A DNA stretch of 64,000 nt, from assembly GCA_964556485.1 (NCBI GenBank), contig CAZKVV010000001.1, positions 148,551-212,550 on the forward strand, written 5' to 3'. The stretch is from an uncultured Pseudomonadales bacterium (GTDB taxonomy: Bacteria > Patescibacteriota > Microgenomatia > UBA1400 > PJMF01). Shown here piece after piece: positions 7,303-36,193 of the stretch. Every line of letters begins with the position of its first letter. Positions within the stretch are counted from its first letter, which is position 1. Made by a program: the position numbers and the translations under genes. The notes under the pieces were generated by a model. The model ran no database searches. It saw only the letters and a list, made by a program, of their open reading frames with translations, and had not been told where the DNA came from.

Positions 7303-7379
7303 TGGTGGACCTGAGGGGAATCGAACCCCTTACCTCTTGTATGCCATACAAGCGCTCTAGCCAAATGAGCTACAGGCCC
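7303..7379 (-). tRNA. tRNA-Ala (anticodon GGC)
   Basis: Reverse complement is GGGCCTGTAGCTCA...CTTGT-ATGGCAT-ACAAG...GGTTCGATTCCCCTCAGGTCCACCA. Cloverleaf with a G3:U70 Ala identity pair; anticodon loop AUGGCAU; encoded CCA. Confidence 0.85.
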
Positions 7380-14470: not shown

Positions 14471-16570
14471 ATGCAAGATCCTGCCCAAGATCAAAAACCA
14501 CTTGCTATTCCGGAAAACAAACCTGTCAACAGTATGGGTGGCATTGGTGGACCGGTAAATGACGCGGTTACTCCTCAAACAAGTGACCCAATGATGACCG
14601 ATGATGTGACTATGGCAGTGTCAACAGATGCTGATGCCGCGATTGTTCCAGAAATACTGGTAACGCCAGTTGCTGAAGTTGCAGCGGATCCACCTACTTT
14701 TGCTGCTCCCACCCTCGAACCTCCTCTCATGCCTGTTGTTGAACCTGTTCCACTTCCACTTACCCCTGATGCGGCGATTGCTGCGCTTCCGGTTCCCCCA
14801 GTAGCCGACCCAACTGCAACATTGCCCGGTCTGAGTGGTATGCCAAATACCATTTTAGATATTTTGCTTACCAAGGGCAGCATCACCCAAGATGCATTCA
14901 ACCAAATTACTGTTGAGCATATTAGTACCGGTGCACCTGTTGAATTGATTCTTTCAGATAAAAATTACGCTTCTGAAGAAGACATCACCCGCGCGAAGTC
15001 TGAACTCAATAACATTCCATTTGTAAAGATTTCCGAGTCCGGTAACGATCCACAGGCGCTCACCCAACTTCCAGAGAGTGTGGCTCGTACCTATAAAATG
15101 TTGCCGATTTCCTACGATAAGGCCGAAAACCACATGGTTGTGGCGATGATTAACCCGTTGGATTTGGCGGCTATCGACTTTGCTGAGAAGAAATCGGGCG
15201 TTCGCATTGATGCCAGGTATGCCATGCCGAGTGAACTCGAGCGTAGTTTAGCCGAGCACTATTCACAATCGCTTTCAAGTGAAGTTACCGCTGCCTTGGA
15301 GGAAACCACCCAAGTTGCGGATACCAAGCAGCGTAAACAAGATTTTTCCGAACTATCAGGTGAAACCATTCGCCAAGCCCCTATTACCAAGATCGTGCAC
15401 ACTATTGTTGAGTTTGCTATGAAGGCACTCGCTTCAGACATTCACATTGAACCTCAAGATGGTCGAACTCGCGTGCGATATCGTATAGACGGTATTTTGC
15501 AAGAAAAGTTGATTCTCCCCTCCTCTGTGCATGATGCCGTGGTTTCCAGAATTAAAATTTTGTGTAATTTGAAGATAGATGAAAAACGCGTGCCTCAAGA
15601 TGGTCGCTTTAACTTCCGTGAGAATGATCAAGAAGTTGACCTTCGTGTGTCAACGTTGCCAACCATTCATGGTGAGAAGATCGTGATGCGTCTACTAAAG
15701 AAGGATGAGTCGGTCCCTGAGCTCCCAGATCTTGGTTTGACCGGCCTCGCCCTTCGCCAGGTACAAGATGCGAGTAAGGTTCCTCACGGCATTGTCTTAG
15801 TTACTGGTCCTACTGGTTCTGGTAAAACTACGACCCTATATTCGGTACTACATAGAATTAATTCACCAAAAGTGAATATTATGACGCTCGAAGATCCGGT
15901 TGAGTACCAAATGATTGGTGTGAATCAGGTCCAGATTAATCCTCAAGCGGGCCTATCTTTTGCATCTGGTTTGAGATCCTTCCTTCGTCAAGACCCCAAT
16001 GTGATCATGGTGGGAGAAATTCGTGATTCAGAGACTGCCGAGCTGGCTATTCAAGCTGCACTCACTGGTCACTTGGTCTTTTCTACCCTACACACGTCTT
16101 CGGCAGCCGGTGCGTTGCCTCGTTTACTTGACATGGGTGCTGAGCCATTCTTGTTAGCTTCATCTATGACTTTGGTGATGGCCCAGCGTGTGGTTCGAAA
16201 AATTCATGCTGATTACAAAGAGGAATATGTTCCCGAGAAAGCCGTTCTTGATGATATCAGAAAGGTGTTAGGTGAAAAATTCGATCAATGGTGCAAGACC
16301 AAGGGAGTGAAGCCAGAAGAAATAAAGTTATACCGTGCTAAGAAAGATCGGCCACAAACTGAGCCAGAATATAAGGGGCGTATTGCTATTTTTGAGGTCA
16401 TGCAAATCACTGAAGGTATTGCAAAGCTTATTTTGGAACGACAGCCTGCATCTGAAATGGAGAAACTTGCAATGAAAGATGGTATGCTGTTAATGAAACA
16501 AGACGGCTATATCAAGGCTCTTGAAGGTATGACTACTATTGAAGAAGTACTGCGTGTAGCTCAGATTTAA
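14471..16570 (+). CDS. pilB: type IV pilus assembly ATPase PilB/GspE with a 130-aa Pro/Ala-rich N-terminal extension
   Basis: GSPII_E N-domain, Walker A (LVTGPTGSGKTTTLYS), Asp box, Walker B, His box, and a tetracysteine-less C-terminus typical of the PilB family. Confidence 0.9.
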   Translation: MQDPAQDQKPLAIPENKPVNSMGGIGGPVNDAVTPQTSDPMMTDDVTMAVSTDADAAIVPEILVTPVAEVAADPPTFAAPTLEPPLMPVVEPVPLPLTPDAAIAALPVPPVADPTATLPGLSGMPNTILDILLTKGSITQDAFNQITVEHISTGAPVELILSDKNYASEEDITRAKSELNNIPFVKISESGNDPQALTQLPESVARTYKMLPISYDKAENHMVVAMINPLDLAAIDFAEKKSGVRIDARYAMPSELERSLAEHYSQSLSSEVTAALEETTQVADTKQRKQDFSELSGETIRQAPITKIVHTIVEFAMKALASDIHIEPQDGRTRVRYRIDGILQEKLILPSSVHDAVVSRIKILCNLKIDEKRVPQDGRFNFRENDQEVDLRVSTLPTIHGEKIVMRLLKKDESVPELPDLGLTGLALRQVQDASKVPHGIVLVTGPTGSGKTTTLYSVLHRINSPKVNIMTLEDPVEYQMIGVNQVQINPQAGLSFASGLRSFLRQDPNVIMVGEIRDSETAELAIQAALTGHLVFSTLHTSSAAGALPRLLDMGAEPFLLASSMTLVMAQRVVRKIHADYKEEYVPEKAVLDDIRKVLGEKFDQWCKTKGVKPEEIKLYRAKKDRPQTEPEYKGRIAIFEVMQITEGIAKLILERQPASEMEKLAMKDGMLLMKQDGYIKALEGMTTIEEVLRVAQI

Positions 16571-16578
16571 GGAGAATT

Positions 16579-17640
16579 ATGAATATAATGGATATTTTGC
16601 AGCAGCTCGTAGACATGGAAGGCTCTGATGTCCACTTGGTGGTTGGTACACCACCGATGCTGCGTGTGCATGGCAAGTTGTTTCCGGTTGAAGGTGCGCC
16701 CGTCTTGGGTAAAGCTGAAGCCGAAGCGCTCATCCATCCACTCCTTACTCAAGAACAAAAAGATTACATTGGGGTTAATAAAGAACTTGACTTTGGCTAT
16801 CAGTTTAAAGATCATGGTCGGTTTAGAATTAACGTCTACCACGCTAAAAATGCGGTTGCCGCCGCCCTACGTTTAATTCCAAGTAAAATAAAATCATTAG
16901 AAGATCTCCAGCTTCCTTCAATTTTTCAAGATTTTACCAACTACAGACAGGGACTCGTTTTGATTACGGGTCCAACTGGTGAAGGAAAGTCCACTTCTCT
17001 TGCTGCGATGATTCAGCGCATCAATGAGACTCGTGCTGAGCATATTGTTACGATCGAAGATCCAGTTGAGTTTCTTTATACGCCAGTAAAGAGTGTGATC
17101 TCACAGCGCGAAATTAACCAAGATACGCATGGTTGGGACATAGCACTCAAATCGGTGCTTCGTGAAGATCCAGATGTGGTATTGATTGGTGAAATGCGTG
17201 ACTATGAAACAATTGCAGCTGCAGTTACTATTGCTGAAACAGGCCACTTAGTTTTTGCCACCTTGCATACCGCAACCGCTGCCCAAACGATCGACCGTAT
17301 CATTGACGTTTTTCCTGGTCATCAACAGGGACAAATTCGCCAACAACTTGCTGCTACACTGGTAGCCATTGCTTCTCAGCGCTTGTTGCCAAATACCAGC
17401 GGCGGACGCATTGCGGCACTTGAGATCATGGTTGCTAACCCTGCTATTCGAAATCTCATTCGTGAGGCTAAGACGCATCAGATCGATAATGTCATGCAAA
17501 CTTCAGCCGGTGCCGGAATGGTGCTGATGGAACATCACCTGCAACAGCTGGTTCAACGAGGCTCTGTGAGCAGAGACGTTGCTAAGGAGTATGCATTCAG
17601 AAAAGAAGATATTGATAGACTCTTAGGTATATCTGGATAA
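16579..17640 (+). CDS. pilT: twitching-motility / pilus retraction ATPase PilT
   Basis: MNIMDILQQLVDMEGSDVHLVVG, Walker A (ITGPTGEGKST) and AIRNLIRE motifs. 353 aa. Confidence 0.9.
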   Translation: MNIMDILQQLVDMEGSDVHLVVGTPPMLRVHGKLFPVEGAPVLGKAEAEALIHPLLTQEQKDYIGVNKELDFGYQFKDHGRFRINVYHAKNAVAAALRLIPSKIKSLEDLQLPSIFQDFTNYRQGLVLITGPTGEGKSTSLAAMIQRINETRAEHIVTIEDPVEFLYTPVKSVISQREINQDTHGWDIALKSVLREDPDVVLIGEMRDYETIAAAVTIAETGHLVFATLHTATAAQTIDRIIDVFPGHQQGQIRQQLAATLVAIASQRLLPNTSGGRIAALEIMVANPAIRNLIREAKTHQIDNVMQTSAGAGMVLMEHHLQQLVQRGSVSRDVAKEYAFRKEDIDRLLGISG

Positions 17641-17653
17641 ATAAAGTAGCATT

Positions 17654-18856
17654 ATGCCATTTTTCAAATACAGTGCAAAAAACAGGTTTTCAGAAAATGT
17701 CACGGGAAAAGTAGAAGCTCAGAGTATTGATCAAGCCGCTTCTCTACTTCAAAGTCGTGATTTGTTGGTAATTAAGTTATCGCCATTGACCGAAGAATCT
17801 TTTGCAGCTATCCGCTCAATGTTGTTTGGAGTGAAGTATGACGATATTGTCAACTTTACTCGTCAGTTAGCGACAATGATTACGGCTGGATTACCACTAG
17901 CAAATGGACTGTCAATTTTGGTTCGTCAAAGCAAGCCAGAAATGTCAAAAATGGTTGCAGTCTTGTTGCAAGATGTTGAAGGTGGAAATACTTTTGCAAC
18001 CTCACTAGAAAAGCATCGCAAACAGTTTAGTACTATCTATATTCAGTTGGTGCGCGCAGGTGAAACCGGCGGTGTTTTAGATGAAGTGCTCAACCGTCTT
18101 GCTGACAATATGGAGAAAGAAAAAGAGTTCCGTGGCAAAACCAAAGGTGCCATGATTTATCCTACCATCGTGATTATGGCTATGTTTGCCGTCGGAATTA
18201 TCATGATGATTTTTGTGATTCCAAAGCTTACCGAAATGTACAAAGATTTTGGTGCTCAGTTGCCGTTACCTACATTAATACTCATGGGTATCTCAGATTT
18301 TATGGTCAAATTTTGGTATATTATGCTTGTCGGTGGCATTGGTGGTAGTGTGCTTTTTGGCAGATGGCGAAAGACAAAAATTGGTCGATTAAAGTGGGAC
18401 CGATTTATGTTGCGCATCCCTATCTTTGGCGTCCTTCGTCAAAAAGTAGTACTGACTGAATTTGCTCGTACGCTCTCACTTTTGCTAGGTGCTGGCATCT
18501 CACTTTTACAAGCAATGCAAATCGTGACTGATGGTGTTGATAATGTGATTTATCACAATGCACTTGCAGACGCTACAAAAGAAATTGAAAAAGGTGTATC
18601 ACTTTCACAGGCGTTAGCACGCCACGATGACTTTCCTCCTATTCTGCATCAAATGATGAGTGTGGGTGAGGAAACAGGTAAGCTTGATGATGTGCTGTTT
18701 AAACTTTCTCGTTACTTTGAATCTGAAGCTGAGCAGGCTGTCAAAAATTTAACAGCTGCTATGGAGCCACTGATTATGGTGGTGCTTGGTGTAGGTGTCG
18801 GAGCCATGGTTATAGCCGTGATTATGCCAATCTATAACTTAACATCTCAATTCTAA
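17654..18856 (+). CDS. pilC: type IV pilus inner-membrane platform protein PilC (GspF family)
   Basis: Two GspF repeats and 3 TM segments. 400 aa. Follows pilB-pilT. Confidence 0.9.
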   Translation: MPFFKYSAKNRFSENVTGKVEAQSIDQAASLLQSRDLLVIKLSPLTEESFAAIRSMLFGVKYDDIVNFTRQLATMITAGLPLANGLSILVRQSKPEMSKMVAVLLQDVEGGNTFATSLEKHRKQFSTIYIQLVRAGETGGVLDEVLNRLADNMEKEKEFRGKTKGAMIYPTIVIMAMFAVGIIMMIFVIPKLTEMYKDFGAQLPLPTLILMGISDFMVKFWYIMLVGGIGGSVLFGRWRKTKIGRLKWDRFMLRIPIFGVLRQKVVLTEFARTLSLLLGAGISLLQAMQIVTDGVDNVIYHNALADATKEIEKGVSLSQALARHDDFPPILHQMMSVGEETGKLDDVLFKLSRYFESEAEQAVKNLTAAMEPLIMVVLGVGVGAMVIAVIMPIYNLTSQF

Positions 18857-18935
18857 GTAACGCTCCCGAAACAAATACGAATAAAATAGGTCAGAAAAAA
18901 GATTGATTTATAGCGTAAAACTAAAAGAGGTCAAA

Positions 18936-18964
18936 ATTAGCAGTCTGGCACTGAGACTGCTAAA
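18936..18964. repeat. hairpin element ATTAGCAGTC-N9-GACTGCTAA (copy 2 of 2), downstream of pilC
   Basis: Stem identical to the 13643-13671 copy; loop tggcactga. Confidence 0.6.
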
Positions 18965-19074
18965 AGCTTATAGCATACTTGATAGCCAAGTTCCCTACTT
19001 GCTAAGCAACCTCGATATGTTATACAGTGGAGACATACCAAAAAGTGCCTACGTAATAAGTACTAATTGAAAAG

Positions 19075-19752
19075 GTGCCAAATATGAGACTGTCTAAACA
19101 TTCTTTGTTATCAATACCAAAAAGTATGAGTGGTTTTACCATGATCGAACTACTGATCGTGATTGCCATTCTTGGTATTTTAGCTGTAGCCGTGCTTTCG
19201 GCCATTAATCCTGTCGAACAGATTAATAGAGGTAGAGACACTGGTTCACGTTCAGATGCTGAACAGCTCCTCAGTGCTGTAGATAGATTTAACGCTTTCC
19301 AAGGGTACTTCCCATGGGTCTCAGCCCCAGCAGACGATTCTACATTAGATGATGGTGCTGCTGGTCCATTAGTTGTCGACGATGCTTGGTTTGCGTATGA
19401 CGGTGGTACTCTAACAGACTGTCAAGTTCTAGACAGACTTGCTGAAGGTGCTGTCGGTGGTACTGATCCATGTACTGGTTCGCAAGAACTTAAGATTTCA
19501 TTCACGCAAAGAGTCACTGGCGGTTCGTATAATCCATTATTCATTTACAACCGAGGTGGTCAAGGTGACAGTACTTATGTATGTTTTGTACCTCAATCTG
19601 GAGCCTTTATTCAGGAAGCTGAAAACAGATGTGGCGATGAAGCTGGCGCTAATCTTCCAGGTGACTTAGCCCCAATTGCTGCTTCAGTATGTGGCGGTCA
19701 CTCAGCAGGTGCAGCACCTAATCCTGACAACATGATGGTTTGTTTACCATAA
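19075..19752 (+). CDS. type IV major pilin (prepilin-type N-terminal cleavage/methylation domain)
   Basis: G|FTMIELLIVIAILGILAVAV class III signal. Internal Mets at 19084 and 19126 are alternative starts. Cys-containing C-terminal region. Strong terminator immediately downstream. Confidence 0.8.
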   Translation: MPNMRLSKHSLLSIPKSMSGFTMIELLIVIAILGILAVAVLSAINPVEQINRGRDTGSRSDAEQLLSAVDRFNAFQGYFPWVSAPADDSTLDDGAAGPLVVDDAWFAYDGGTLTDCQVLDRLAEGAVGGTDPCTGSQELKISFTQRVTGGSYNPLFIYNRGGQGDSTYVCFVPQSGAFIQEAENRCGDEAGANLPGDLAPIAASVCGGHSAGAAPNPDNMMVCLP

Positions 19753-19776
19753 CAAACCTGTTCGTTTCGAAATTGA

Positions 19777-19806
19777 AACCAGCCGGTACTTCCCGGCTGG
19801 TTTTGT
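19777..19806 (+). terminator. Rho-independent terminator after the major pilin gene
   Basis: aaccagccgg-tacttc-ccggctggtt followed by TTTTG. Confidence 0.65.
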
Positions 19807-19831
19807 AGTATAAATGCTATACTAATAACCC

Positions 19832-20650
19832 ATGCTTTTTGCACCCTTTTTACTAGCATTACTCTTTTTCTTAGTCCTTGGTGCTGTGATTGGGAGTTTT
19901 ATCAATGTGGTAATAATTCGCACAATTGAAGGTGAGTCCTGGGTTGCTGGTAGGTCGCGGTGCGACCATTGCCGTAAAAACATTGCTTGGTTTGACAACG
20001 TCCCTTTGATTTCTTTTTTCCTGCTGAAAGGAAAATGCCGCTATTGTAAAAAAAATATCGCCCTTTCGCACCCCGTTGTAGAGGCACTCACCGCCCTCCT
20101 CTTTGTGTGGTGGTACATTGGTTTGTTTTTTTTCTTTAAACTTACGCAAGAACCATTTGTGGTTTTGCAGCCTCTCTTTTGGTTAACTGTCGCTGTGATT
20201 CTATTAATCATTTTTTTCACCGACTTGTTAGTCCTGCTTATTCCAGACAAGTTGGTTTTGGCGCTGTCTGTGCTAGTGGTGGTATATCGCATAGCTCTTA
20301 TCTATTCCGGCATCATGCAGCCACGAGATTTTTTCTTGGCTTTGATTGGTATGGTTGTGTTAGTACTGTTTTTCTTTGCACTGTGGTTTTTCTCTGGTGG
20401 TCGAGGTCTTGGTTTTGGCGATGTAAAACTGATTGCGCCGTTGTCACTGCTGATGGGTTGGCCTGAAATGATTGTAGGTGTATTCACTGCGTTTTGTACT
20501 GGTGCAGTCGTTGGCTTATTCCTCGTTGCAACAAAGAGACACGCCCTTAAACAACCACTGCCATTTGGTCCGTTTTTAATCATTGGAACGATTGTTGCCT
20601 TGGTTTGGGGAAATGAGGTTATTGCTTGGTATTTACAGCTTTTTAGCTAG
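19832..20650 (+). CDS. pilD: prepilin peptidase / N-methyltransferase (A24 family)
   Basis: N-terminal CxxC...CxxC zinc motif (CDHCRKNIAWFDNVPLISFFLLKGKCRYCKKNI), polytopic membrane protein, and a GFGDVKL catalytic-Asp region. Confidence 0.85.
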   Translation: MLFAPFLLALLFFLVLGAVIGSFINVVIIRTIEGESWVAGRSRCDHCRKNIAWFDNVPLISFFLLKGKCRYCKKNIALSHPVVEALTALLFVWWYIGLFFFFKLTQEPFVVLQPLFWLTVAVILLIIFFTDLLVLLIPDKLVLALSVLVVVYRIALIYSGIMQPRDFFLALIGMVVLVLFFFALWFFSGGRGLGFGDVKLIAPLSLLMGWPEMIVGVFTAFCTGAVVGLFLVATKRHALKQPLPFGPFLIIGTIVALVWGNEVIAWYLQLFS

Positions 20651-20700
20651 TTTCTGTTGCGGGGGTGACAACTGCCTTATAACTCGCTACTATAGTATGT

Positions 20701-21651
20701 ATGCGGATTTTGTTGTCCATGCTGAAAGTTTTTTTTGCACTGCTAGTGTTAGCTGCTGTGGTTTTGTTAATATCAAGAGAGGCATTACTGATTTCTGCCA
20801 CACACGTAATTACCAGCTCACTGGGAGAGTTGCAGCGTGCAGGCACAAAAGGTACACACATTGGTCAATGTCAGAATCGTGGCTTTGGTTTTATTGATGG
20901 CTCGGAAGCAGTGATGCAACTTCGCTTTTTGAGTGACACCGAGTTTGTTCTAGAAGTAAAGTGTTCTGAAAATTCAACTGAAGCAATTTTAATTTCGAGA
21001 AAGAATTTGCCCCCATTTGTTACGAAAGTGCAAGGCGGCTCTGGATTTCCACTGTTTGGCAGAAGTGCGATTAAGATTGAGGTATTTAGATCGTTTGAAA
21101 CGATGTTAAAGTCGGTGCTCTTTTTTGAGCCGACCTTTTTGCTTCGCAGTAAAACAATTGCTGCTGAAGATGGCTTTATAATTGAAGACTTCTCCCCTTT
21201 TGATTTTGAAAATGGTCCGATTACTTCTTGTAGTGGATATGGTTATTTTTGTTGTGACGCAGTGGCAGAAAAAGGTGCTGGTGAACAAATCATAGGATTA
21301 AATGGTTGCGAAGAACGCTGTTATGCCAGTTGTGTGGCTCGACCTCTAGTTCTTTCATTTACAACCAATCCGTTTTTTGACTTCAAAACAAGAAAATTGT
21401 CTCTGAGAAATGGTGAAACTGTTGAGTTCTCGTATGTAGTTGATACTCCAGCAGGGACTACAGCGACGGCAACATTTGATTTTGGAGATGGTGAAACTAG
21501 CACTGCCGAAGGTGAAAATGGAACAGTTAGTCATACCTATTCATGTCCTAATACCACATGTGAGTATCCAGCATCAATACAGGTTATTGATAATTGGGGC
21601 ATAGAGTCGATCATTTCAGATGTTAGCAAGCTGATGGTGGTTGTAGAATAA
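20701..21651 (+). CDS. secreted/membrane-anchored protein with C-terminal PKD domain
   Basis: N-terminal signal/anchor. C-terminal ATFDFGDGETSTAEGENGTVSHTYSCP is a PKD-domain signature. Confidence 0.6.
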   Translation: MRILLSMLKVFFALLVLAAVVLLISREALLISATHVITSSLGELQRAGTKGTHIGQCQNRGFGFIDGSEAVMQLRFLSDTEFVLEVKCSENSTEAILISRKNLPPFVTKVQGGSGFPLFGRSAIKIEVFRSFETMLKSVLFFEPTFLLRSKTIAAEDGFIIEDFSPFDFENGPITSCSGYGYFCCDAVAEKGAGEQIIGLNGCEERCYASCVARPLVLSFTTNPFFDFKTRKLSLRNGETVEFSYVVDTPAGTTATATFDFGDGETSTAEGENGTVSHTYSCPNTTCEYPASIQVIDNWGIESIISDVSKLMVVVE

Positions 21652-21727
21652 CTCATAACCCACTCCCCTTGCTTTTTGCCTGCATTTCTGCCTAGAATGA
21701 AGCTATATATATCAAGGGACAAGATAC

Positions 21728-22183
21728 ATGCACAAACTACTTCAAAAAAGAAATCGTGGTTTTACTTTACTCGAGCTATTAGTAGTTATTTCGATCATTG
21801 GTATTCTTATTGCAATCAGTGCTGCAGCATTCACAACAGCACAGCAAAAAGCTCGTAATGCAAAACGACAAGGTGATGTTAACGCAATGGCAAAGGCTTT
21901 TGAACAGTATTACGCTATAAACGGTAGTAGCTATGCCGCTACTTGTGGGGCAATGGCTGGTGCATTGCAAGGTGGCATCATACCCTCCGATCCCAAGACC
22001 GGTGTCCGATACGATGTTGGTGGTTCATGCGTATCTGACACTGTAGCAAATACCTACTGTGTTTGTGCTACTCTAGAGCCCACAGGCACAACTGCGGGCA
22101 ACAGTAATGCTACCGCAAATGCCACTTGCTCTGGCCTCTCAGCGGGGAGTGGGCAGTATTTCTGTATAAAGAATCAACAATAG
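21728..22183 (+). CDS. type IV pilin-like protein (prepilin N-terminal domain)
   Basis: RG|FTLLELLVVISIIGILIAIS. Confidence 0.8.
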   Translation: MHKLLQKRNRGFTLLELLVVISIIGILIAISAAAFTTAQQKARNAKRQGDVNAMAKAFEQYYAINGSSYAATCGAMAGALQGGIIPSDPKTGVRYDVGGSCVSDTVANTYCVCATLEPTGTTAGNSNATANATCSGLSAGSGQYFCIKNQQ

Positions 22184-22191
22184 GAGTATTC

Positions 22192-22647
22192 ATGAAACGC
22201 AAGAACACGCAAAAAGGGTTTAGTTTGATAGAACTCCTGGTGGTTTCAACAGTGATTATTGTGATTACAACTATTGGTTTAGTGAGTTTTACTAGCGCTG
22301 GCAAAGGTGCGCGTGATGGCAAGCGTAAAGCCGATTTGGAGGCAGTACGACAAGCCTTGGTGCTCTATAAAGCAGATGGCAACGCCTATCCAACTGGGGC
22401 TGGAACAAATGGTAGTTATGTTACTGTTTCTGCTTCTCTCATAAGTGCGGGCTATCTTAGCAATCCTCGTCCTGATGATCCAAAAAATACGGCTCCCTAT
22501 CAATATTCATACTATGCTCCTGCGACTGGCGATAGCTTTTGTTTATGTGCTTATGCGGAAGATGATGATATAGCCAACCAAAGTGCTACAAACTGCCCAC
22601 TGCTTGGTTTGAGCACGCCAGCATACTACTGTGTGCAGAATCCATAA
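22192..22647 (+). CDS. type IV pilin-like protein
   Basis: Start at MKRKNTQKG|FSLIELLVV (AGGAG RBS). Paralog of the preceding pilin. Confidence 0.8.
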   Translation: MKRKNTQKGFSLIELLVVSTVIIVITTIGLVSFTSAGKGARDGKRKADLEAVRQALVLYKADGNAYPTGAGTNGSYVTVSASLISAGYLSNPRPDDPKNTAPYQYSYYAPATGDSFCLCAYAEDDDIANQSATNCPLLGLSTPAYYCVQNP

Positions 22648-22650
22648 CGT

Positions 22651-23178
22651 ATGAGACTGCCCAAACTCAACACACGAGGATTTTCACTCTTAGAAATGAT
22701 TATTACTGTTTCGATAGTGTTGATTGTATTTGGTGGAGGTCTAGCAGCTTTTATTCGTTTTAACGACCGACAGCGCGTGCAAGCCACAGCCAATGATATT
22801 AAGCAGTTTATAAAAAGTGCTCAGACCAGAGCACGTGTTCGAGATAACCCCGATCAGGCTGGTTGTAACCAGTTGCAGGGCTATCGAGTGACAACAACTG
22901 GTTCGTTAGCAATCATGAATTTGTTATGTGGTGCCACAAAGTTTTCGAATGCACCAGGGATTCAGAGAGCAACGTATACCGTTCAAAGCGGTATTACTGT
23001 CACAAGCATGTCAATCAACTTTTACACTCTCGAAGGTTCTGCAAATGTTATTACACCAGCAGATAATAAGATTAGGGTGAATGGCACCAATGCCTACTAC
23101 TTGTTTAGAGTTGAAGAATCTGGAGAGATTACAGAGGGTTGTTTTGTGACTACAGCAACCAGTGATACGTGTCTGTAA
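22651..23178 (+). CDS. pseudopilin / minor pilin
   Basis: RG|FSLLEMIITVSIVLIVFGGG prepilin signal. Confidence 0.75.
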   Translation: MRLPKLNTRGFSLLEMIITVSIVLIVFGGGLAAFIRFNDRQRVQATANDIKQFIKSAQTRARVRDNPDQAGCNQLQGYRVTTTGSLAIMNLLCGATKFSNAPGIQRATYTVQSGITVTSMSINFYTLEGSANVITPADNKIRVNGTNAYYLFRVEESGEITEGCFVTTATSDTCL

Positions 23179-23191
23179 GAATATGGTGCAT

Positions 23192-23659
23192 ATGAAAAAG
23201 ATAAAGCGACTCAGGTTTCAAATGGGCTCCACACTGGTGGAGTTACTCATTGCCATGATGATTGTTGGCACCATTGTAACGGCTGTTGCAGCAGGAGTTA
23301 CTTCTTCAGTTAAGAACAATGCTGAAGCGAGATATCGTGAAGTTGCAACTAATCTCGGTCAAGAGGTATTGGAAGTGATGCGCAAAGAACGTTCTCAACT
23401 TGGATGGGTGCACTTTTATCAAGCCCTCTCTGGTACGCAGTACTGTGTACCAGCAGGAGTGCGAGATGTAACTGGTTTTCTATCCGGATCAAGTTGCACT
23501 GTTACAGAAGCAAATACTACTTTTAGTCGAATACTGAGCATTACTAAAACTGGAGGCAATGAGCTTTCCGCTACGGTGACAGTGACCTGGGTTAGATCAC
23601 CTGGTAACACGAGTCAAATTACACTTACACAAGAATTCAGGGAAGCAAGTAGAAACTAA
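23192..23659 (+). CDS. pseudopilin / minor pilin
   Basis: MG|STLVELLIAMMIVGTIV prepilin-like N-terminus. An alternative start lies at 23183. Confidence 0.65.
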   Translation: MKKIKRLRFQMGSTLVELLIAMMIVGTIVTAVAAGVTSSVKNNAEARYREVATNLGQEVLEVMRKERSQLGWVHFYQALSGTQYCVPAGVRDVTGFLSGSSCTVTEANTTFSRILSITKTGGNELSATVTVTWVRSPGNTSQITLTQEFREASRN

Positions 23660-23671
23660 CCATTTCTGTTG

Positions 23672-24208
23672 TTAATTTCTCAACACAACCGTGGCAGCAA
23701 AGCTTTCCGTGCTAGCAGGCGTGGCTGCGGTTTGATTAATCGTTGGCGCAACTTTATCTAATTGAAAAGATATATCAACATAGCGAGAGCCATCAGCATT
23801 CTCGTAACAATCAAAAACTAATTGTCGTGCGGCAACGGCATTTGAAGTCAGGAAGGCGCTGTTAGAGGCAATTTTACCAGTTACGTCTAACTGAAGTTCT
23901 GTAGTGCCGCCATTGATCGCATCGAAGGCAATGCTGTCCATACCTGTTTGGCAAATTTGTCCAGTTGCATTGTCAACGAGAGTGTATGAGTTTCTAAGTA
24001 AAAATTCCATTTGTCCGAGGGCATAACTGCCTTCAACCTTAAGTGTGTTTTTGGTATTCGTTTTAGCATTACTGATTAAAAAAGTCATGAACATTGACGA
24101 CACAGTGAGGATGAGAATCACCATTAGCGAAGTAACAATCATCAATTCTATCAGTGTAAAACCATGCTGCTTAGTAATATGGTTGGAGAACTGGGCAATT
24201 TTTGGCAT
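23672..24208 (-). CDS. pseudopilin / minor pilin (translationally coupled to the giant protein upstream)
   Basis: HG|FTLIELMIVTSLMVILIL prepilin signal. Its start abuts the stop of the 24209..27823 gene. Confidence 0.7.
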   Translation of the reverse strand: MPKIAQFSNHITKQHGFTLIELMIVTSLMVILILTVSSMFMTFLISNAKTNTKNTLKVEGSYALGQMEFLLRNSYTLVDNATGQICQTGMDSIAFDAINGGTTELQLDVTGKIASNSAFLTSNAVAARQLVFDCYENADGSRYVDISFQLDKVAPTINQTAATPASTESFAATVVLRN

Positions 24209-30321: not shown

Positions 30322-30497
30322 TATTGCTTTCTGTTGGGAGTAAACCACATATTGTTTTATTAAATAGTGGTGTGGTAAACTTCCCTCTTCTTGCACTTAC
30401 TCTACCAGTTTTTGCGTGGTATTTGTATTGTACAAATCGTTCAGTATTTTACCACTGAGTCTTATAATATTGCAATGCGTAGCAGATGTGTAGGGAA

Positions 30498-31067
30498 TTA
30501 GTTAATGACGTTTTCCATCGAATCTAAAATTAGTCTTCTCACGAAATCTGATTTGGATGTATTTCTTTTTTTAGACTCAGTTATAAGAAAAGTGTTCAAT
30601 TTGGAAGATAGTACCATATTAAACCGAATCTCATTGGCTAAGTTCATCTCGAGTAAATAATATTCGACAAGCTCTTTTAATTCAGAATCAGATGAATATT
30701 CACAGAAGAAAACTTTGTTAAGTTTTTCCAAGGTGGGGATGAGATTTGGTTTCGGCTTACCTTTTTTAAAAAAAATTACAACCGGTTTTCCAATGCTTAC
30801 TGCATGAGAAAGGAGGAATCCAACACTCAGGCTTTGTTTGCTGCTTTCTGATATGACAACGTCAGTGCTGGAAATATTTTTAAGTAATTTGAGATGAAAT
30901 GCTGTGTTTTCCAACTCATTTTGCAGGTCAATTTTTTCTTGCGAGTAAGTAGTTACATGGTCACAAATTAAAGTGATTTTGTTGTTATCGCAGACATTCT
31001 TAATGACCTCAATGCTTTTAGCATAAAAATCTTTTTCACGAATTGATCCAATAAAAACTACTTTCAT
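30498..31067 (-). CDS. NDT-like (nucleoside 2-deoxyribosyltransferase/SLOG-like) domain fused to a C-terminal ribbon-helix-helix domain; catalytic Glu replaced by Leu
   Basis: MKVVFIGS start and an SVGFLLSHAVSIGKPVV segment that aligns with the NDT GxGMELGYAxxxGKxV motif but has L in place of the nucleophile E. C-terminal RFNMVLSSKLNTFLITESKKRNTSKSDFVRRLILDSME is a CopG/Arc-like RHH. AT-rich codon usage. Confidence 0.55.
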   Translation of the reverse strand: MKVVFIGSIREKDFYAKSIEVIKNVCDNNKITLICDHVTTYSQEKIDLQNELENTAFHLKLLKNISSTDVVISESSKQSLSVGFLLSHAVSIGKPVVIFFKKGKPKPNLIPTLEKLNKVFFCEYSSDSELKELVEYYLLEMNLANEIRFNMVLSSKLNTFLITESKKRNTSKSDFVRRLILDSMENVIN

Positions 31068-31087
31068 TATTGTTTTGATAGTATATC

Positions 31088-31104
31088 ATACTTACTCAGT
31101 AAGT
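31088..31104. promoter_or_regulatory. 17-bp perfect palindrome TACTTACTcAGTAAGTA in the divergent promoter, candidate RHH operator
   Basis: Read directly. Centred about 26 nt upstream of the 30498..31067 start and about 50 nt upstream of the 31145 start. Confidence 0.5.
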
Positions 31105-31144
31105 AGCTTTGCTGCAAAAAGTGATACAATAACACTCACTAATA

Positions 31145-32188
31145 ATGTCAAAAATGAATAATAACAAATCAGGATTGGTTGAAATTAAACCGTTTATAGT
31201 TAAATCTGTAGGCGAACACAGTATGGGCGCCCCAGTATTGAAATACTTAGAGATAAAGATGCATGATTATCTCAGAGATCACAGTAGAAATTTTAAAAAG
31301 ATTTTAGTTATCGGTGAGTATGATAGAACGTGCTCGATATCTTCATTTGAAAAAGATGGCAAAACATCTAACTGGCAACGTCCAACCGCAGAAATCATCA
31401 ATGATGAGCTAATAATAAAATGTTTTCCTGGAAAGGATTATGTTAGGCATTATGCATCATTAATTGCCTCATATTTGTATTTAACTGATCGAAAGTGGTC
31501 GCATGTTCGATATGTCTTGCCAACAGAAGCGAAATGTGAGGCAGCAGTTGACGACTTATTCCTTGAAAATATTCCCGTTGGAGATGTGTTAATCATTGGA
31601 AGTGGTTTGCCTGCAATCGCAGGCGAAGATCGATGGGAAGGGAATAATCATTATTTATATAAGTCAGTCTCAATTAATAATCAAACGGTAGTATTTTTAA
31701 TTTTTCAGTTTAGTTTTTGGGGTGATATTCTTTACAGAATTATAAAAAAGATGGGTTCATCATTTAAAAAAATTCTCTTCACAGCAAAGGTTGGTGGAAT
31801 TAGATCAGATTTAATTCCTAATGAAACATTAGCAACAGGCAGTCAATCATTTATAGATGGAGAATTTGTAAGTTGGAAAGGTCTTTTCGAAGATGTAACT
31901 TCTCCATTTTTGGTAAAAGGTCGGCATATTAACTCACCTTCAGTACTGTTGGAGACTAAAGCTTGGGTAAAATCATTTTCTGGAATAGAGTTTGTTGACT
32001 CAGAAATTGGCTACTTTATTAAGTCTACTAGAGATATTGGTGTTAACTCTGGATATTTGCACTTTATTTCAAACAATCTTACGAACCCACACGCTGAGGA
32101 TCTCTCAAATGAGAGGGAAAAAAGTGTTATTCTCAAGCGAAGTAAATTGAATGAAGAAATCAGAAGAATAATTTACGAGATTATCTGA
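31145..32188 (+). CDS. hypothetical protein; C-terminal two-thirds resemble the PNP/UDP phosphorylase / nucleosidase fold (low confidence)
   Basis: By-eye motif resemblance only: DVLIIGSGLP, KILFTAKVGGIRSD and FVDSEIGYFI resemble the G-rich phosphate/ribose loops and the (D/E)MEGAA-like segment of MTA/AMP nucleosidases. The 130-aa N-terminal domain is unknown. Very AT-rich. Confidence 0.45.
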   Translation: MSKMNNNKSGLVEIKPFIVKSVGEHSMGAPVLKYLEIKMHDYLRDHSRNFKKILVIGEYDRTCSISSFEKDGKTSNWQRPTAEIINDELIIKCFPGKDYVRHYASLIASYLYLTDRKWSHVRYVLPTEAKCEAAVDDLFLENIPVGDVLIIGSGLPAIAGEDRWEGNNHYLYKSVSINNQTVVFLIFQFSFWGDILYRIIKKMGSSFKKILFTAKVGGIRSDLIPNETLATGSQSFIDGEFVSWKGLFEDVTSPFLVKGRHINSPSVLLETKAWVKSFSGIEFVDSEIGYFIKSTRDIGVNSGYLHFISNNLTNPHAEDLSNEREKSVILKRSKLNEEIRRIIYEII

Positions 32189-32235
32189 TAGAATTCCAGG
32201 TATATGTTATCCAATTTAATAAGGAATGCGAGATT

Positions 32236-32799
32236 ATGAAAGTGCACTTTATTGCTGATGTTGATGGAGATAAAACTGATTATAAAAAGATAATTTCAAC
32301 AATTGAATCACTTAATCATACGATTGTTACAAGGCATTACTTAGAAAGAAAAATTGAGGAAATTGTTCAGGAGTCTCCAGCTGAATCTGAACTATATGCT
32401 AAGAGGTCAATGAGATGGTTGAAAAATGCAGATGTGGTAATTTTTGAAACAACCAAGCCAGATGTGAGTGTGGGGTATGAGCTTGCCGTTGCAGTTAATT
32501 TGAATAATCCTGTGATAGTTATGTATCACAATACAAAAGGTACGCCCCCGAATAGCATAAAGGGTGTAGAATCAGAAAAACTTCAGATCATTGGATACGA
32601 CGACAGCACCTTAGTGGAAATTCTTGAGATTGCACTTGAAAATGCGCATGATTCAACTGATGTCCGCTTCAACTTCTTCATCTCCCCTTCTATTGGTAGC
32701 TATCTCGACTGGATTTCTAAGAATAAGAAAGTCCCACGCTCAGTGTATCTTCGTAATCTCATTCAAAGAGACATGGAAGAGAATGAAGAATATCGATAA
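32236..32799 (+). CDS. NDT-like (nucleoside 2-deoxyribosyltransferase/SLOG-like) domain fused to a C-terminal ribbon-helix-helix domain; catalytic Glu retained
   Basis: Paralog of 30498..31067 (about 30 percent identity, co-linear). SVGYELAVAVNLNNPVIV matches the NDT GxGMELGYA..GKxV motif including the Glu. C-terminal VRFNFFISPSIGSYLDWISKNKKVPRSVYLRNLIQRDME is an RHH. Confidence 0.55.
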   Translation: MKVHFIADVDGDKTDYKKIISTIESLNHTIVTRHYLERKIEEIVQESPAESELYAKRSMRWLKNADVVIFETTKPDVSVGYELAVAVNLNNPVIVMYHNTKGTPPNSIKGVESEKLQIIGYDDSTLVEILEIALENAHDSTDVRFNFFISPSIGSYLDWISKNKKVPRSVYLRNLIQRDMEENEEYR

Positions 32800-32947
32800 G
32801 TTGTCAATCATAACACGATATCTTTATCGATCATGCTTAGCTCAATTTTTCCCACCCTCCTCTTGCGGTTTCTCTGTCTAGTACGCTATAGTAATAAAAG
32901 GTTTATGAGCACGACGCAAAAGTAGTGTATAAATCAGGTAGTACTGC

Positions 32948-33763
32948 ATGTCCAAAACACACCAAACTAATCGACTACAACACGCAAACGTAGTGTGTTG
33001 CGGCAACTCCCAATCTGGTCAAGTTGCTGTGGTTGTATTGCTTATCATGGTGGTATTACTCACCATTGGTCTGTCTCTCGCGGCCAGAACCACCCAAGAA
33101 GTCTTCCTTTCTCAACAACAATCAGATAGTGCTAGAGTATTTAATGCTGCAGAATCTGGCGTTGAAGAGGCTCTGAGTCAAAGTTTTGCTACCGGTGCCA
33201 CAAACGGTAGTCTCGTAGTGGACGGTATTGATGTTAATTACACGGTTAATACTCAAAGTCGACTCGACACACTCATTACTGAGGGTATGAGTGCTCACAT
33301 ACAATTAAATGGTTATGCTGGAAACATTACCATAGACTGGGCGCAAGAAGCCAACTGTGCAGACAGGGCATCGTTCATTGCGACAATTTTTTATGACGAT
33401 GCAGGAGTACTGAGATCTCAACACCTAGCCTTTGGACCACCAACAACTTGCGTCAATCATAACGATAACTTCCTCCAGGGTTCCAACTTGGCAGGAAATC
33501 CGTTCTATCACCGCTACATCATTAGTGGCGCTACGCTCCCAGCCAATTCACAATTTATTCGCCTCAAGCCGGTGTATGCAGATGCTGACATTTTAGTAAC
33601 TGGTAGTACTGGATTCCCAAGTCAACACAATACCATTCGTTCAACTGCTACTTACTCAGGTGGGGATGAACAGCGTAGTATAGAAGTATCGCGTAGTCTA
33701 CCTGCTGCACCAGCATTTATGGATTACGCACTGTATTCAGGAGGAAGCATTACAACGCCATAG
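32948..33763 (+). CDS. PilX-like minor pilin / pilus assembly protein
   Basis: N-terminus QSGQVAVVVLLIMVVLLTIGLSLAARTTQE resembles the PilX N-terminal domain; the rest is secreted. Confidence 0.6.
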   Translation: MSKTHQTNRLQHANVVCCGNSQSGQVAVVVLLIMVVLLTIGLSLAARTTQEVFLSQQQSDSARVFNAAESGVEEALSQSFATGATNGSLVVDGIDVNYTVNTQSRLDTLITEGMSAHIQLNGYAGNITIDWAQEANCADRASFIATIFYDDAGVLRSQHLAFGPPTTCVNHNDNFLQGSNLAGNPFYHRYIISGATLPANSQFIRLKPVYADADILVTGSTGFPSQHNTIRSTATYSGGDEQRSIEVSRSLPAAPAFMDYALYSGGSITTP

Positions 33764-33796
33764 CAAAAATACGTGTAGTATAAGAAAGCCTGCCCT

Positions 33797-34804
33797 ATGT
33801 CCACACTCGCCATCGATATCGGTTCCTATAGTATAAAAGCAGTCAGCGGTAAAGCTGGGGTCTCACCTCATGTTGATCGTGTTGTTGAAGTTTTTAATAC
33901 CACTGGACTTGCGGTCCCTACCGATGATCCAGCTCAAGAAAAACTAGCTGGTTTACTTGAATCTATCCTTGCAGACAATGACTTACCTCGCACAGATGTG
34001 AGACTCTCACTTCCAGAAACAGTTATTTCAACCAAGGTTATCAGCATTCCACCACTCAGTGATGCTGAGCTTGCTTCTGCCATTGGTTGGCAAGCGGAAC
34101 AACACATTCCGATTCCTCCAGAAGAATTGTCTCTCGAATATCAAGTCTTGTACCGTCCTGTCAAAAAAGACAAAGAAATGATGCGTATTCTCCTTGTGGG
34201 TGCTCGCAAACAAGTAGTTGAGCGCTATGTGGAAATGTTCCACATGTTGGGTATTGAACCATCATTGGTAGAAACACAGATTATTTCTATCATCCGCTCT
34301 TTGGTTTTCACCCCACAGGATCCTACAACTTTGGTCGTACACATGGGTGCTTCTTCTATGAATATGGCAATGGTTGCTGGCGGCGAACTTCAGTTTGTGA
34401 CGACTCACATGAATGGTGGTCAGTTGCTCTCTAAAGCACTCGAACAAACCATTGGTTTAGATCGAACACAGGCAGAAAAATACAAGCGCACCTATGGTTT
34501 AGATGAATCTCAGTTCCAAGGTAAAGTGAAGGCAGCATTACTTCCAGCAGTAAACGTACTCACTACCGAGGTAAAAAAGGCTGTGCAGTTTTATATTCAT
34601 GAGCATCCTCAAGATTCTGTCCATCGCGTTGTTTTATCTGGTGGGACTGCCGCACTGCCTCATTTTGTCCAACACATCACTCAAGAATTGGGTACTGAAG
34701 TACTTGTTGCTGCCCCACTTACTAATGTCGGTGGGACGCTTCCAGCAAATATCAATCCTCCTGCACTCGGCGTGTGTATGGGGCTGTTGATGAGAGAAGA
34801 TTAG
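33797..34804 (+). CDS. pilM: type IV pilus assembly protein PilM (actin-like ATPase fold)
   Basis: MSTLAIDIGSYSIKAV start and an ASKHA-fold pattern throughout. 335 aa. Confidence 0.85.
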   Translation: MSTLAIDIGSYSIKAVSGKAGVSPHVDRVVEVFNTTGLAVPTDDPAQEKLAGLLESILADNDLPRTDVRLSLPETVISTKVISIPPLSDAELASAIGWQAEQHIPIPPEELSLEYQVLYRPVKKDKEMMRILLVGARKQVVERYVEMFHMLGIEPSLVETQIISIIRSLVFTPQDPTTLVVHMGASSMNMAMVAGGELQFVTTHMNGGQLLSKALEQTIGLDRTQAEKYKRTYGLDESQFQGKVKAALLPAVNVLTTEVKKAVQFYIHEHPQDSVHRVVLSGGTAALPHFVQHITQELGTEVLVAAPLTNVGGTLPANINPPALGVCMGLLMRED

Positions 34805-34807
34805 CGT

Positions 34808-35386
34808 ATGTCAAGAGATATCAACTTTGTTGCTATTCGGCGCAAAAAGCTTACATCTGAGCAAAAGCGGGATAAAGTTTATTTTAGGTATGCCACATGG
34901 GGCGTCTTGGTTACTTTTGGAGTGATGCTGCTTATCGTTGGCGTGAGATTGTTTGCGGTTATACAAGTCAAGAAACTTACGGATACTCAAGCTTCAACAA
35001 AAAAAGCGATAATGGCGCAAGAGCAAGTCGAGAAAGATTACAATATTTTTGCTCACAAGTTAAAAGCGCTCTCAGAACTTTTTGGCCGACGTTTAGATAA
35101 ACAAGAAGCAATGGTGTTCTTTAGCCAGGCTTTTGGCCAGCATATTATCATTAGTGAGATTGATTATAGTGCTGAAGCTGACGATATTGTAACGTTTACC
35201 CTTACCGCCCCAAGTGTCTTTGATCTAGAAAATGTGTTTGCCATTTTGGAACGTCCCGATGTTTCTGAAAAGTACACTTCAATAGTAAAAAGTGGATTAA
35301 GTCGAGGCGGAGATGGGTTTTACAATATTAAACTTACCATTGCCTTGGGGAAACACAAGTTGCCTGAACCAGAAGTAACGGAATAA
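34808..35386 (+). CDS. pilN: PilN-like pilus assembly protein
   Basis: INFVAIRRKK N-terminus followed by a single TM. Follows pilM. Confidence 0.65.
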   Translation: MSRDINFVAIRRKKLTSEQKRDKVYFRYATWGVLVTFGVMLLIVGVRLFAVIQVKKLTDTQASTKKAIMAQEQVEKDYNIFAHKLKALSELFGRRLDKQEAMVFFSQAFGQHIIISEIDYSAEADDIVTFTLTAPSVFDLENVFAILERPDVSEKYTSIVKSGLSRGGDGFYNIKLTIALGKHKLPEPEVTE

Positions 35387-35392
35387 TACACC

Positions 35393-36193
35393 ATGCTAGA
35401 ACCTAAAGATAAATCACAAATTAATTTTAAAGTTATCTGGACAACCAGAAAATACATGGTGTTTACAGTGGGCATTGTTGCTTTGATAGTGTGTTTAGTT
35501 GCTTTTGGAATGTATCCACAAGTTGCAGCTGTTCTCAAACTAAGAGCTGAGTATCAAAATGAAAAGCCAAAATTAGATAAACTTCAGGCAAAATTGGCAG
35601 AATTACAAAATGTTTTGTTTACTGAAGAGTTTGTTCACGCACCACTAGTCAATGAGGCTCTGCCTTCAAATAAGCCATTGCTAGAGTTTTTAACCAGTTT
35701 AAATACTATTGCGGTAGTCAACGAGATTGCGGTTACCAACTTTGAAATTAATCCGGGAATCATTGCTACTGATGCTTCTCAAGTGAATCAGGCAAGTAAA
35801 GCTAAGGGTTCGGTTGATTCTCTTGAGCTCAGTCTAGAAATTGAAGGTAGTTTTGATCAACTGCAGGCATTTTTATTGGATATCGAGAGAATTTCTCCGT
35901 TTACTACCATCACTACGTTATCACTCGGTAAAGGCGCCTCAGCTGCAGATAGAGGGACTGATAGACTTATTTCCGCATCACTCACAACTAAAACATATTT
36001 CTTTGTTCAAACAATAAAAGCCACTGTCGAAGCGCCATTGCCAAAGTTGGGTGCAAATGATCGAAATGTGTTGAATGCTCTGGCAGAGTTTCAGGCTTCT
36101 GATTTGCCTGAGCAAACAGAGATCATTGGTGGAGGCGTTGAAGATCCATTTGGCGTGGGAAAACTAGAGATACTAAACCAGTTTAAAAACTAA
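35393..36193 (+). CDS. pilO: PilO-like pilus assembly protein
   Basis: N-terminal TM, then coiled coil (LKLRAEYQNEKPKLDKLQAKLAELQN). Position after pilM and pilN. Confidence 0.55.
   Translation: MLEPKDKSQINFKVIWTTRKYMVFTVGIVALIVCLVAFGMYPQVAAVLKLRAEYQNEKPKLDKLQAKLAELQNVLFTEEFVHAPLVNEALPSNKPLLEFLTSLNTIAVVNEIAVTNFEINPGIIATDASQVNQASKAKGSVDSLELSLEIEGSFDQLQAFLLDIERISPFTTITTLSLGKGASAADRGTDRLISASLTTKTYFFVQTIKATVEAPLPKLGANDRNVLNALAEFQASDLPEQTEIIGGGVEDPFGVGKLEILNQFKN

Follow-up and report, generated by a model that had tools for sequence, protein, structure and literature searches.

How uncultured Candidate Phyla Radiation (CPR) bacteria recognise their hosts and hold on to them is an open question, and outside the Saccharibacteria we know of no candidate adhesin for these organisms. 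A locus that speaks to this question was found at positions 14471-36193 of a 64,000-nucleotide stretch of contig CAZKVV010000001.1 (hereafter the window), where a minus-strand operon coding for a giant protein of 1204 aa lies among type IV pilus (T4P) genes. We are nearly certain that the region is a T4a-like pilus cluster, and we read its genome as one of the Patescibacteria, of the Microgenomates/Pacebacteria type. As a pilus cluster the locus offers nothing new; its novelty lies in the family of the giant protein, a concrete and widespread adhesin candidate with at least 454 clusters, a searchable domain and a fixed position in the pilus cluster.

The giant protein, its family and its distribution

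The minus-strand operon consists of four translationally coupled genes, which code in order for a 625-aa and a 240-aa membrane protein (U1 and U2), the 1204-aa giant protein and the prepilin p178. The U1 and U2 genes overlap by 17 nt and the U2 and giant genes by 11 nt, and the ATG of p178 abuts the giant stop codon with a gap of 0 nt. U1, U2 and the giant gene are referred to here as the cassette. An earlier inspection of the DNA letters by a model (the sequence-only reading) had described a Cys-rich secreted protein of 1204 aa coupled to a pseudopilin, and the signal peptide, the 44 Cys residues, the missing intergenic gap and the recurrence of the arrangement in dozens of loci all bear this out.

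The giant protein begins with a signal peptide (residues 1-30, read from the sequence) followed by a Cys-rich region (31-235, containing 28 of the 44 Cys), an Ig-like domain (about 236-340), a weakly CBM_4_9-like stretch (about 447-526), further beta domains and a conserved dock-like domain of about 310 aa (about 895-1204) ending in WQEVN. No prepilin motif is present. A C-terminal sorting signal of the sortase, exosortase or type IX secretion system kind was considered and rejected, since the conserved tail is not followed by a hydrophobic segment. In the public protein collection the protein appears only as a product of 893 aa whose first residue is Met312 (P0001, NCBI source). The window, however, contains an uninterrupted 1204-aa open reading frame (ORF) that includes a signal peptide, and the gene call on deposit is therefore likely to be too short.

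Only 3 homologs of the giant protein were returned by a word-indexed search, and an exhaustive search of representatives was needed to uncover the family. It numbers 653 representatives at E <= 1e-3, of which 454 reach E <= 1e-10 and 158 reach E <= 1e-30, each representative standing for a cluster at 50% identity. Members range in length from 300 to 1600 aa and have variable N-terminal parts, and in nearly all of them the match reaches the last residue, the typical ending being ...F.YRPDF..N.P..M..P...WQEVN. One homolog carries PF02018 (CBM_4_9). The possibility of a polymorphic toxin was rejected, as in such toxins the N-terminus is the conserved end and the C-terminus varies, whereas this family displays the reverse.

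The conserved domain had no sequence match in Pfam (even at E <= 5), NCBIfam or the PDB, the family profile included. Nothing useful came from querying the PDB with the sequences of the giant protein and of the 347-aa junction protein (Table 1), or with profiles of the giant C-terminal domain, p178, PilN and PilX. An AlphaFold2 model of residues 735-1204, with a mean predicted local distance difference test (pLDDT) of 80 and a predicted template modelling (TM) score of 0.77, consists of many short strands, and the domain looks like a beta-solenoid rather than the beta-propeller of PilY1. Its nearest folds in two libraries were 6bg8_A (E 3.4e-3, probability 1.00) and a viral DUF3494 protein (probability 0.96), with weak TM-scores of 0.40-0.44. 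Although the tail residues W466 and E468 never vary, the monomer model gives the final six residues a pLDDT <50, as one would expect of a tail that binds a partner. The family is large and previously undescribed, a PilY1-like build on a different fold.

Scanning species-representative genomes with the profile of the giant domain returned 71 related loci, whose six-frame ORFs were annotated with the window proteins; 47 of them have full flanking sequence and are the basis for the linkage counts. Their labels read Patescibacteria, Pacebacteria, Woesebacteria or Microgenomates. In about 45 loci the giant gene is followed by a p178-type prepilin, convergent with prepilins of the 165-aa, 175-aa and two 151-aa types, the PKD-domain protein gene, pilD, the 225-aa-type prepilin, pilC, pilT and pilB. 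A prepilin lies directly downstream of the giant gene in 27 of the 47 loci, 26 of which also contain T4P machine genes, and the distance between the giant stop and the prepilin start is mostly <=40 nt. The pilX-pilM-pilN-pilO block of Pacebacteria-like loci shares the strand of the giant gene and stands upstream of it, and this block is inverted in the closer relatives of the window; several loci carry two giant paralogs in tandem. In this synteny comparison, of a kind proposed with the sequence-only reading, both the T4P gene order and the giant-pilin pair recur across related loci, 26 of the 47 placing the pair inside a T4P cluster.

The genes of the locus diverge at different rates. Compared with the closest relative (locus L002), identity amounts to 82% for PilX, 80% for PilN and 80% for p178. 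The giant protein retains 71-77% from residue 301 to its C-terminus and 45-55% in its first 200 residues; U1 retains 47% over the N-terminal 408 residues, its C-terminal part of about 215 aa being unalignable, and U2 shares 20% (E 3e-5) with its positional counterpart. On these values the fastest-evolving parts of the locus are the tip of the giant protein and the regions of U1 and U2 that lie outside the cell, and the conserved domain of the giant protein matches the conserved pilins, not U1 or U2. Across loci the mean divergence (-ln identity) was 1.06 for the giant C-terminal domain and 1.08 for the minor pilins, and the domain co-diverges with the locus (r 0.54-0.78).

U1 is predicted to have a cytoplasmic part of about 120 aa and an extracellular part of about 485 aa. 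By phmmer and jackhmmer U1 found homologs in L002 and L058 only, while U2 matched no family and found no homolog, and hhalign comparison of U2 clusters gave probabilities <8%. Across loci U1 and U2 are therefore taken as positional and topological counterparts, sequence homology being mostly undetectable. In this sense, the giant gene is preceded by a U1-size ORF (>=300 aa) in 39 of 47 loci and also by a U2-size ORF (140-300 aa) in 32 of 47, with an N-terminal transmembrane (TM) helix in 31 of these 32. U1 and U2 show weak C-terminal similarity to each other, and in several lineages the long and the short protein have a common C-terminal domain.

The cassette is a facultative element of the locus, present in some relatives and absent from others, and p178 is kept both with and without the giant gene. 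Loci retrieved by way of the pilins thus present another picture than those retrieved by way of the giant protein. Among loci seeded by the PKD protein, four have the cassette, L078 has the genes of the operon junction only and L090 has p178 reversed with no cassette annotated; in L093 a methyltransferase occupies the junction instead. The full three-gene cassette was also seen on L040 and L092, outside pilus loci, and in L040 all three genes are homologous (30-42% identity) to cassettes inside CPR-type pilus loci. This suggests a surface module shared or exchanged between CPR bacteria and Chloroflexi.

A possible tip adhesin and its rivals

The obvious term of comparison is PilY1. This protein carries a type I signal peptide, its C-terminal domain is conserved and its N-terminus poorly so, its gene clusters with those of minor pilins, and it rests on PilX, a pilin that lacks Glu5 (PMC7541494). 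By analogy, the giant protein might be a functional counterpart of PilY1, that is, an adhesin at the pilus tip, a plausible proposal to which we give slightly less than an even chance. The C-terminal beta-solenoid domain, with its invariant free WQEVN tail, would dock onto the conserved minor-pilin complex, leaving the variable N-terminal modules (Cys-rich, Ig-like and weakly CBM-like) to face outwards and bind the host surface, and PilT-driven retraction would then pull the cell onto the host. U1 and U2 would be membrane partners, evolving fast and exposed at the surface, which hold the giant protein, load it or act together with it, and unlinked paralogous cassettes could provide the same pilus with other heads. 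Docking finds its strongest indirect argument in the matched conservation described above, as the C-terminal domain diverges like the minor pilins while U1 and U2 are hypervariable.

Several observations weigh against this proposal, the strongest being the loci in which cassette and pilus occur separately. In 20 of the 47 loci the giant gene has neither a prepilin nor a T4P gene within 10 kb, mostly being accompanied by one or both of the U1/U2-type genes. Chloroflexi contigs of 1.7-3.7 Mb (L010-L012, L015, L040) carry giant-family genes with no pilus genes nearby, and on the 3.6-Mb contig of L092 the cassette stands beside AbiE, ParA and KAP NTPase genes, again with no pilus genes nearby. Conversely, L073, L074, L075 and L078 possess the flanking, pilus and junction genes of the window with p178 directly after the junction and no U1, U2 or giant gene, and in L076 and L077 pilX and p178 stand back to back with nothing between them. 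From the cassette-less relatives and the 20 unlinked loci it follows that the pilus does not need the cassette, and that the cassette may not need the pilus. To these points must be added that a mirror-tree co-evolution test gave no p178-specific signal, that the giant C-terminal domain has no PF05567 and its model is not a propeller, and that NCBIfam, PDB-profile and Foldseek comparisons placed p178 in no pilin subclass. The link of the giant protein to the pilus is consequently a plausible candidate drawn from gene context and architecture. The sequence-only reading had called the protein a probable tip adhesin; what stands of this is a secreted non-pilin encoded tight against a minor pilin, and, with neither a PilY1 signature nor a propeller, the tip function is reduced to an analogy.

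As a rival explanation, the cassette might encode a self-contained adhesin or envelope complex of the cell surface, the giant protein being anchored to the cell body, or presented there, by U1 and U2. Its position in the pilus locus would then reflect a shared role in attachment and co-regulation, with the pilus providing long-range tethering and the giant protein close-range binding. The giant gene has more constant companions in U1 and U2 than in the pilin, which agrees with such a complex and is a further point against docking: the U1- and U2-size ORFs recur in pilus-linked, unlinked and Chloroflexi loci alike, the TM helix of U2 is nearly constant, and close relatives keep the pilus locus without the cassette. 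A two-step model, pilus first and close-range adhesins second, has moreover been proposed for Saccharibacteria (PMC12206443). On the other hand, the conserved giant domain would need hypervariable partners, with U2 at 20% identity where its neighbours are at 80% and U2 clusters devoid of detectable homology, and the complex leaves unexplained why the cassette ends at the start of a minor pilin in 27/27 T4P loci. We consider this explanation possible, at rather less than one chance in two.

Two other explanations appear improbable, and to a similar extent. The giant protein might be a secretion cargo, a released or wall-bound carbohydrate-binding or enzymatic protein pushed through the cell wall or S-layer by the pilus or a pseudopilus acting like the piston of a type II secretion system (T2SS). 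GspE, GspF and GspG are indeed the best NCBIfam matches of the ATPase, the platform protein and the short pilins (all under cut-off), the giant protein has a weak CBM_4_9 signal and a homolog with PF02018, and PilY1, too, has been described as analogous to T2SS substrates (PMC7541494). However, the presence of PilT, above the cut-off of its family, marks the pilus as retractile, Pfam and NCBIfam scans found no catalytic domain in the giant protein, and the conserved part of the family is the extreme C-terminus, with no recognisable enzyme core. Alternatively, the locus might mainly build a competence pilus for DNA uptake, the cassette being a variable surface module that hitch-hikes with it and has no role in the pilus. 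The facultative nature of the cassette agrees with a passenger, and CPR pili have been linked to DNA uptake besides attachment (10.1101/335083; PMC9938205). Against it stand the strictly conserved insertion beside p178 and co-divergence across at least 30 loci, which argue against a random passenger, and the lack of com genes among the window ORFs scanned.

A bolder proposal may be made, which we hold as speculative and rather doubtful. The WQEVN domain, some 310 aa long, would act as a new dock, independent of PilY1, by which interchangeable adhesin heads are loaded onto secretin-less type IV pili, the hypervariable ectodomains of U1 and U2 together with the giant N-terminus would set the host range of Microgenomates-type cells, and the cassette would be shared with Chloroflexi as possible hosts or donors. 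Were this true, it would provide a host-specificity module readable from sequence for uncultured episymbionts. The steep conservation gradient already points to the parts likely to contact the pilus and those likely to contact the outside world, and evolution may have reached a PilY1-like solution by way of another fold. Should the cassette prove independent of the pilus, it would still be a new three-protein surface module common to CPR bacteria and Chloroflexi.

The pilus cluster and its surroundings

The features of the locus are collected in Table 1. All ORF coordinates between 14471 and 36193 agree with the layout given by the sequence-only reading, namely pilB-pilT-pilC-pilin-pilD, a PKD-domain protein, four pilins, the minus-strand operon, an "island", a PilX-like gene and pilMNO, and the family matches support the same order, with pilN assigned by position.

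Table 1. Genes of the type IV pilus locus, with window coordinates and supporting matches
Feature	Position	Strand	Evidence
pilB-type extension ATPase, 699 aa	14471..16570	+	T2SSE 402 bits and MshEN
pilT retraction ATPase, 353 aa	16579..17640	+	TIGR01420 446 bits (cut-off 319)
pilC platform protein, 400 aa	17654..18856	+	T2SSF in two stretches, E 8.5e-65
prepilin, 225 aa, G|FTMIE	19075..19752	+	N_methyl 31.8 bits; between pilC and pilD
pilD prepilin peptidase, 272 aa	19832..20650	+	A24_N_bact and Peptidase_A24; 7 hydrophobic helices
Cys-rich single-pass protein with C-terminal PKD domain, 316 aa	20701..21651	+	PKD 31 bits; TM helix 3-21
prepilin, 151 aa, GspG-like	21728..22183	+	N_methyl 38 bits; TIGR01710 44 bits, under cut-off
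prepilin, 151 aa from ATG 22192 (ORF opens 22126), GspG-like	22192..22647	+	T2SSG 26.5 bits and N_methyl
minor prepilin, 175 aa, GspH/FimU-like by N-terminus only	22651..23178	+	N_methyl; PRK10506 and GspH under cut-off
minor prepilin, 165 aa, PilV/GspI-like by N-terminus only	23162..23659	+	TIGR02523 pilV 40 bits (cut-off 52)
core minor prepilin p178, G|FTLIEL	23672..24208	-	N_methyl 29.5 bits; last gene of minus-strand operon
giant secreted modular protein, 1204 aa	24209..27823	-	signal peptide; C-terminal dock-like domain
U2, single-pass membrane protein with hypervariable extracellular part, 240 aa	27813..28535	-	TM helix 37-55
U1, single-pass membrane protein, first cassette gene, 625 aa	28519..30396	-	TM helix 122-140
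junction gene, 189 aa	30498..31067	-	30% identity, E 3e-20, to the 187-aa protein; weak Nuc_deoxyrib_tr match
junction gene, 347 aa, variable middle gene	31145..32188	+	homologs only in L013, L073-75, L078
junction gene, 187 aa, nucleoside 2-deoxyribosyltransferase-like N-terminal domain	32236..32799	+	PF05014 27.6 bits (cut-off 28.8)
PilX/GspK-like pilin-like protein, 271 aa	32948..33763	+	PilX_N 21 bits (cut-off 25.5); TM helix 26-44
pilM, 335 aa	33797..34804	+	PilM_2 131 bits; TIGR01175 163 bits (cut-off 133)
pilN-like single-pass protein, 192 aa	34808..35386	+	position; TM helix 34-52
pilO/GspM-like single-pass protein, 266 aa	35393..36193	+	T2SSM_b 29.4 and PilO 25.8 bits, both over cut-off; TM helix 22-40

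For the pilB-type ATPase, PilB and GspE were the top NCBIfam matches, under their equivalog cut-offs (516 vs 676; 536 vs 630). The protein between PilM and PilO matched no family in the window copy or in 20 relatives (21 members), and its assignment as PilN-like is positional: the gene lies between pilM and pilO in 23/23 loci, the topology is single-pass and an I-N-F motif near the N-terminus is invariant. A scan of 55 window ORFs against Pfam (all but two of the ORFs of >=150 aa) revealed no Secretin and no PilY1/PilC domain, a negative that applies to the window and not to the rest of the genome, in line with the missing pilQ already recorded by the sequence-only reading. The absence of a secretin in the window is expected for a cell without an outer membrane, and lack of PilQ is a known state in CPR bacteria, for which co-localised pilB-pilT-pilC-pilD-pilM and CPR-specific pilins are described (10.1101/335083). 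T4P-dependent motility and host binding were shown experimentally in Saccharibacteria (PMC12206443). The cluster is thus a retractile, secretin-less T4P cluster of an ordinary CPR kind, and since both the gene set and the experiments are already published, its core is a good example of a known thing.

Six prepilins with a class III leader of the form G|F(T/S)xxE or G|STLVE were found in the window, all six inside the locus, corresponding to the five pilins and one coupled pseudopilin of the sequence-only reading; a PilX-like gene completes the tally. The 225-aa prepilin, a type that occurs in about 38 related loci, is the candidate major pilin, its role being predicted. A terminator-like hairpin (19737-19758, plus strand) overlaps the 3' end of its gene and would fit a highly expressed major pilin, though promoter and terminator scans gave total counts equal to the chance expectation. 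Family alignments of p178 show two invariant Cys and a C-terminus ending in ...LRN, and its AlphaFold2 model (pLDDT 91) has the classical lollipop shape of a pilin. In a comparison aimed at the PilW/GspJ class, the NCBIfam and PDB profile matches of p178 were confined to the N-terminal helix, and Foldseek with the same model found nothing significant. The PilX-like protein has no Glu5, the sequence following the Gly being QVAVVVLL; PilX_N was matched in 9 of 18 family members (best E 6.5e-6), the window copy alone being under the cut-off. The PilX_N-type N-terminus without Glu5 places the protein in the PilX/GspK cap-pilin class.

The PKD protein is a conserved, locus-specific accessory component. 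Homologs occur in 35 of the 71 related loci, invariably between pilD and the first short prepilin, and an alignment from 31 loci contains 24 invariant columns, 9 of them Cys. It matched no NCBIfam family, and curated families cover its PKD domain and nothing more. The pilus machine of CPR bacteria may include it as a part that has so far escaped recognition.

The three genes at the junction between the two divergent pilus operons had been regarded in the sequence-only reading as an embedded island. Our comparison reverses the roles, the junction genes being resident and the giant cassette the variable element. Homologs of the junction genes occupy the same site in about a dozen related loci (L002, L003, L007, L013, L018, L058, L073-75, L078 and L080), also where the cassette is lacking, and we therefore read them as resident leader genes of the two operons and not as a recent or foreign insertion. 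The 189-aa and 187-aa proteins are paralogs, each heading one of the operons: the former heads the minus-strand operon, and the gene of the latter lies directly upstream of the pilX-like gene. The orthologs of the 187-aa protein in L073 and L074 match PF05014 at E <= 1e-5. The 347-aa protein had no match in Pfam, NCBIfam, PADLOC or the PDB, and PADLOC returned no defence-system match for the junction genes, the only hit being ThsB TIR-like at E 0.032. Their G+C content is 0.33-0.37, against 0.42-0.47 around them. The 40 C-terminal residues of the paralogs might form a small DNA-binding motif, and the junction genes are possibly regulators.

The flanks of the locus are made of housekeeping genes, with gyrA, gyrB and holB on one side and rpsP, rnc, the acyl-carrier protein gene, nusB and recG on the other. 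A CAP-domain protein (58207-58836, minus strand) and DUF5656 (1601-2368, plus strand) and DUF5660 (50982-51653, minus strand) proteins are also encoded. The CAP family is reported as almost CPR-specific (10.1101/335083), and its presence supports the placement of the window in the CPR. Many third-party annotation assemblies containing a CPR-type pilus locus (L002-L072) are titled "uncultured Pseudomonadales", "Gammaproteobacteria", "Limisphaerales" or "Methylococcaceae", and their gene content suggests that these titles or bins are wrong.

Outside the pilus locus, a 244-aa protein (6322-7056, minus strand) contains a Tad4 domain, a type I Thoeris inhibitor (E 9.6e-22, 77.8 bits, cut-off 25). 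Its neighbours are a tRNA-Ala (7303-7379, minus strand), a tyrosine recombinase/integrase (3753-4688, plus strand) and a weak phage tail-terminator match (5472-6170), and the region may be an integrated element carrying an anti-defence gene in a CPR genome. In GyrA (7434-10355, minus strand, 973 aa) DNA_topoisoIV was matched in two separate stretches with an unrelated weak match between them, which hints at an insertion in the catalytic domain.

Comparison with known systems

The closest parallel is offered by PilY1/PilC and the FimU-PilV-PilW-PilX minor pilins of Pseudomonas, Neisseria and Myxococcus. Like PilY1, the giant protein is encoded among minor pilins, in the vicinity of a Glu5-less cap pilin, and its family also displays a signal peptide, a variable N-terminus, a conserved C-terminal domain and paralogs with different heads. 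Unlike PilY1, it has neither PF05567 nor a vWA domain, and its C-terminal domain is modelled as a beta-solenoid rather than as a seven-bladed propeller. Two single-pass membrane proteins precede it in most loci, about 40% of the family loci lie far from pilus genes, and it has no secretin to pass through; a location at the tip is a prediction by analogy.

With respect to the DUF3494, or type 1 ice-binding, beta-helix, the best structural neighbour of the C-terminal domain, the TM-scores given above go together with an identity of about 10% and no PF11999 match; the likeness would concern at most the fold class, with neither family membership nor function following from it.

The same co-localised genes without PilQ, with a proposed role in host attachment or motility, are described for the CPR T4P set (10.1101/335083) and for T4P-1 and T4P-2 of Saccharibacteria (PMC12206443) in the parts of these accounts that were available, which make no mention of the PKD membrane protein or of the junction genes of this locus. 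The adhesin candidate presented there for Saccharibacteria is the pilin-like PilX2 with a grafted beta-propeller (PMC12206443), whereas in the locus analysed here it is a separate secreted protein with a docking-type domain and two membrane partners. The same principle is finally recognised in the modular pilins PilB and PilC of Streptococcus sanguinis, by which adhesive modules are displayed on a monoderm-type T4P. In that organism the module is fused to the pilin, whereas the giant protein, lacking a pilin N-terminus, would have to bind the pilus non-covalently.

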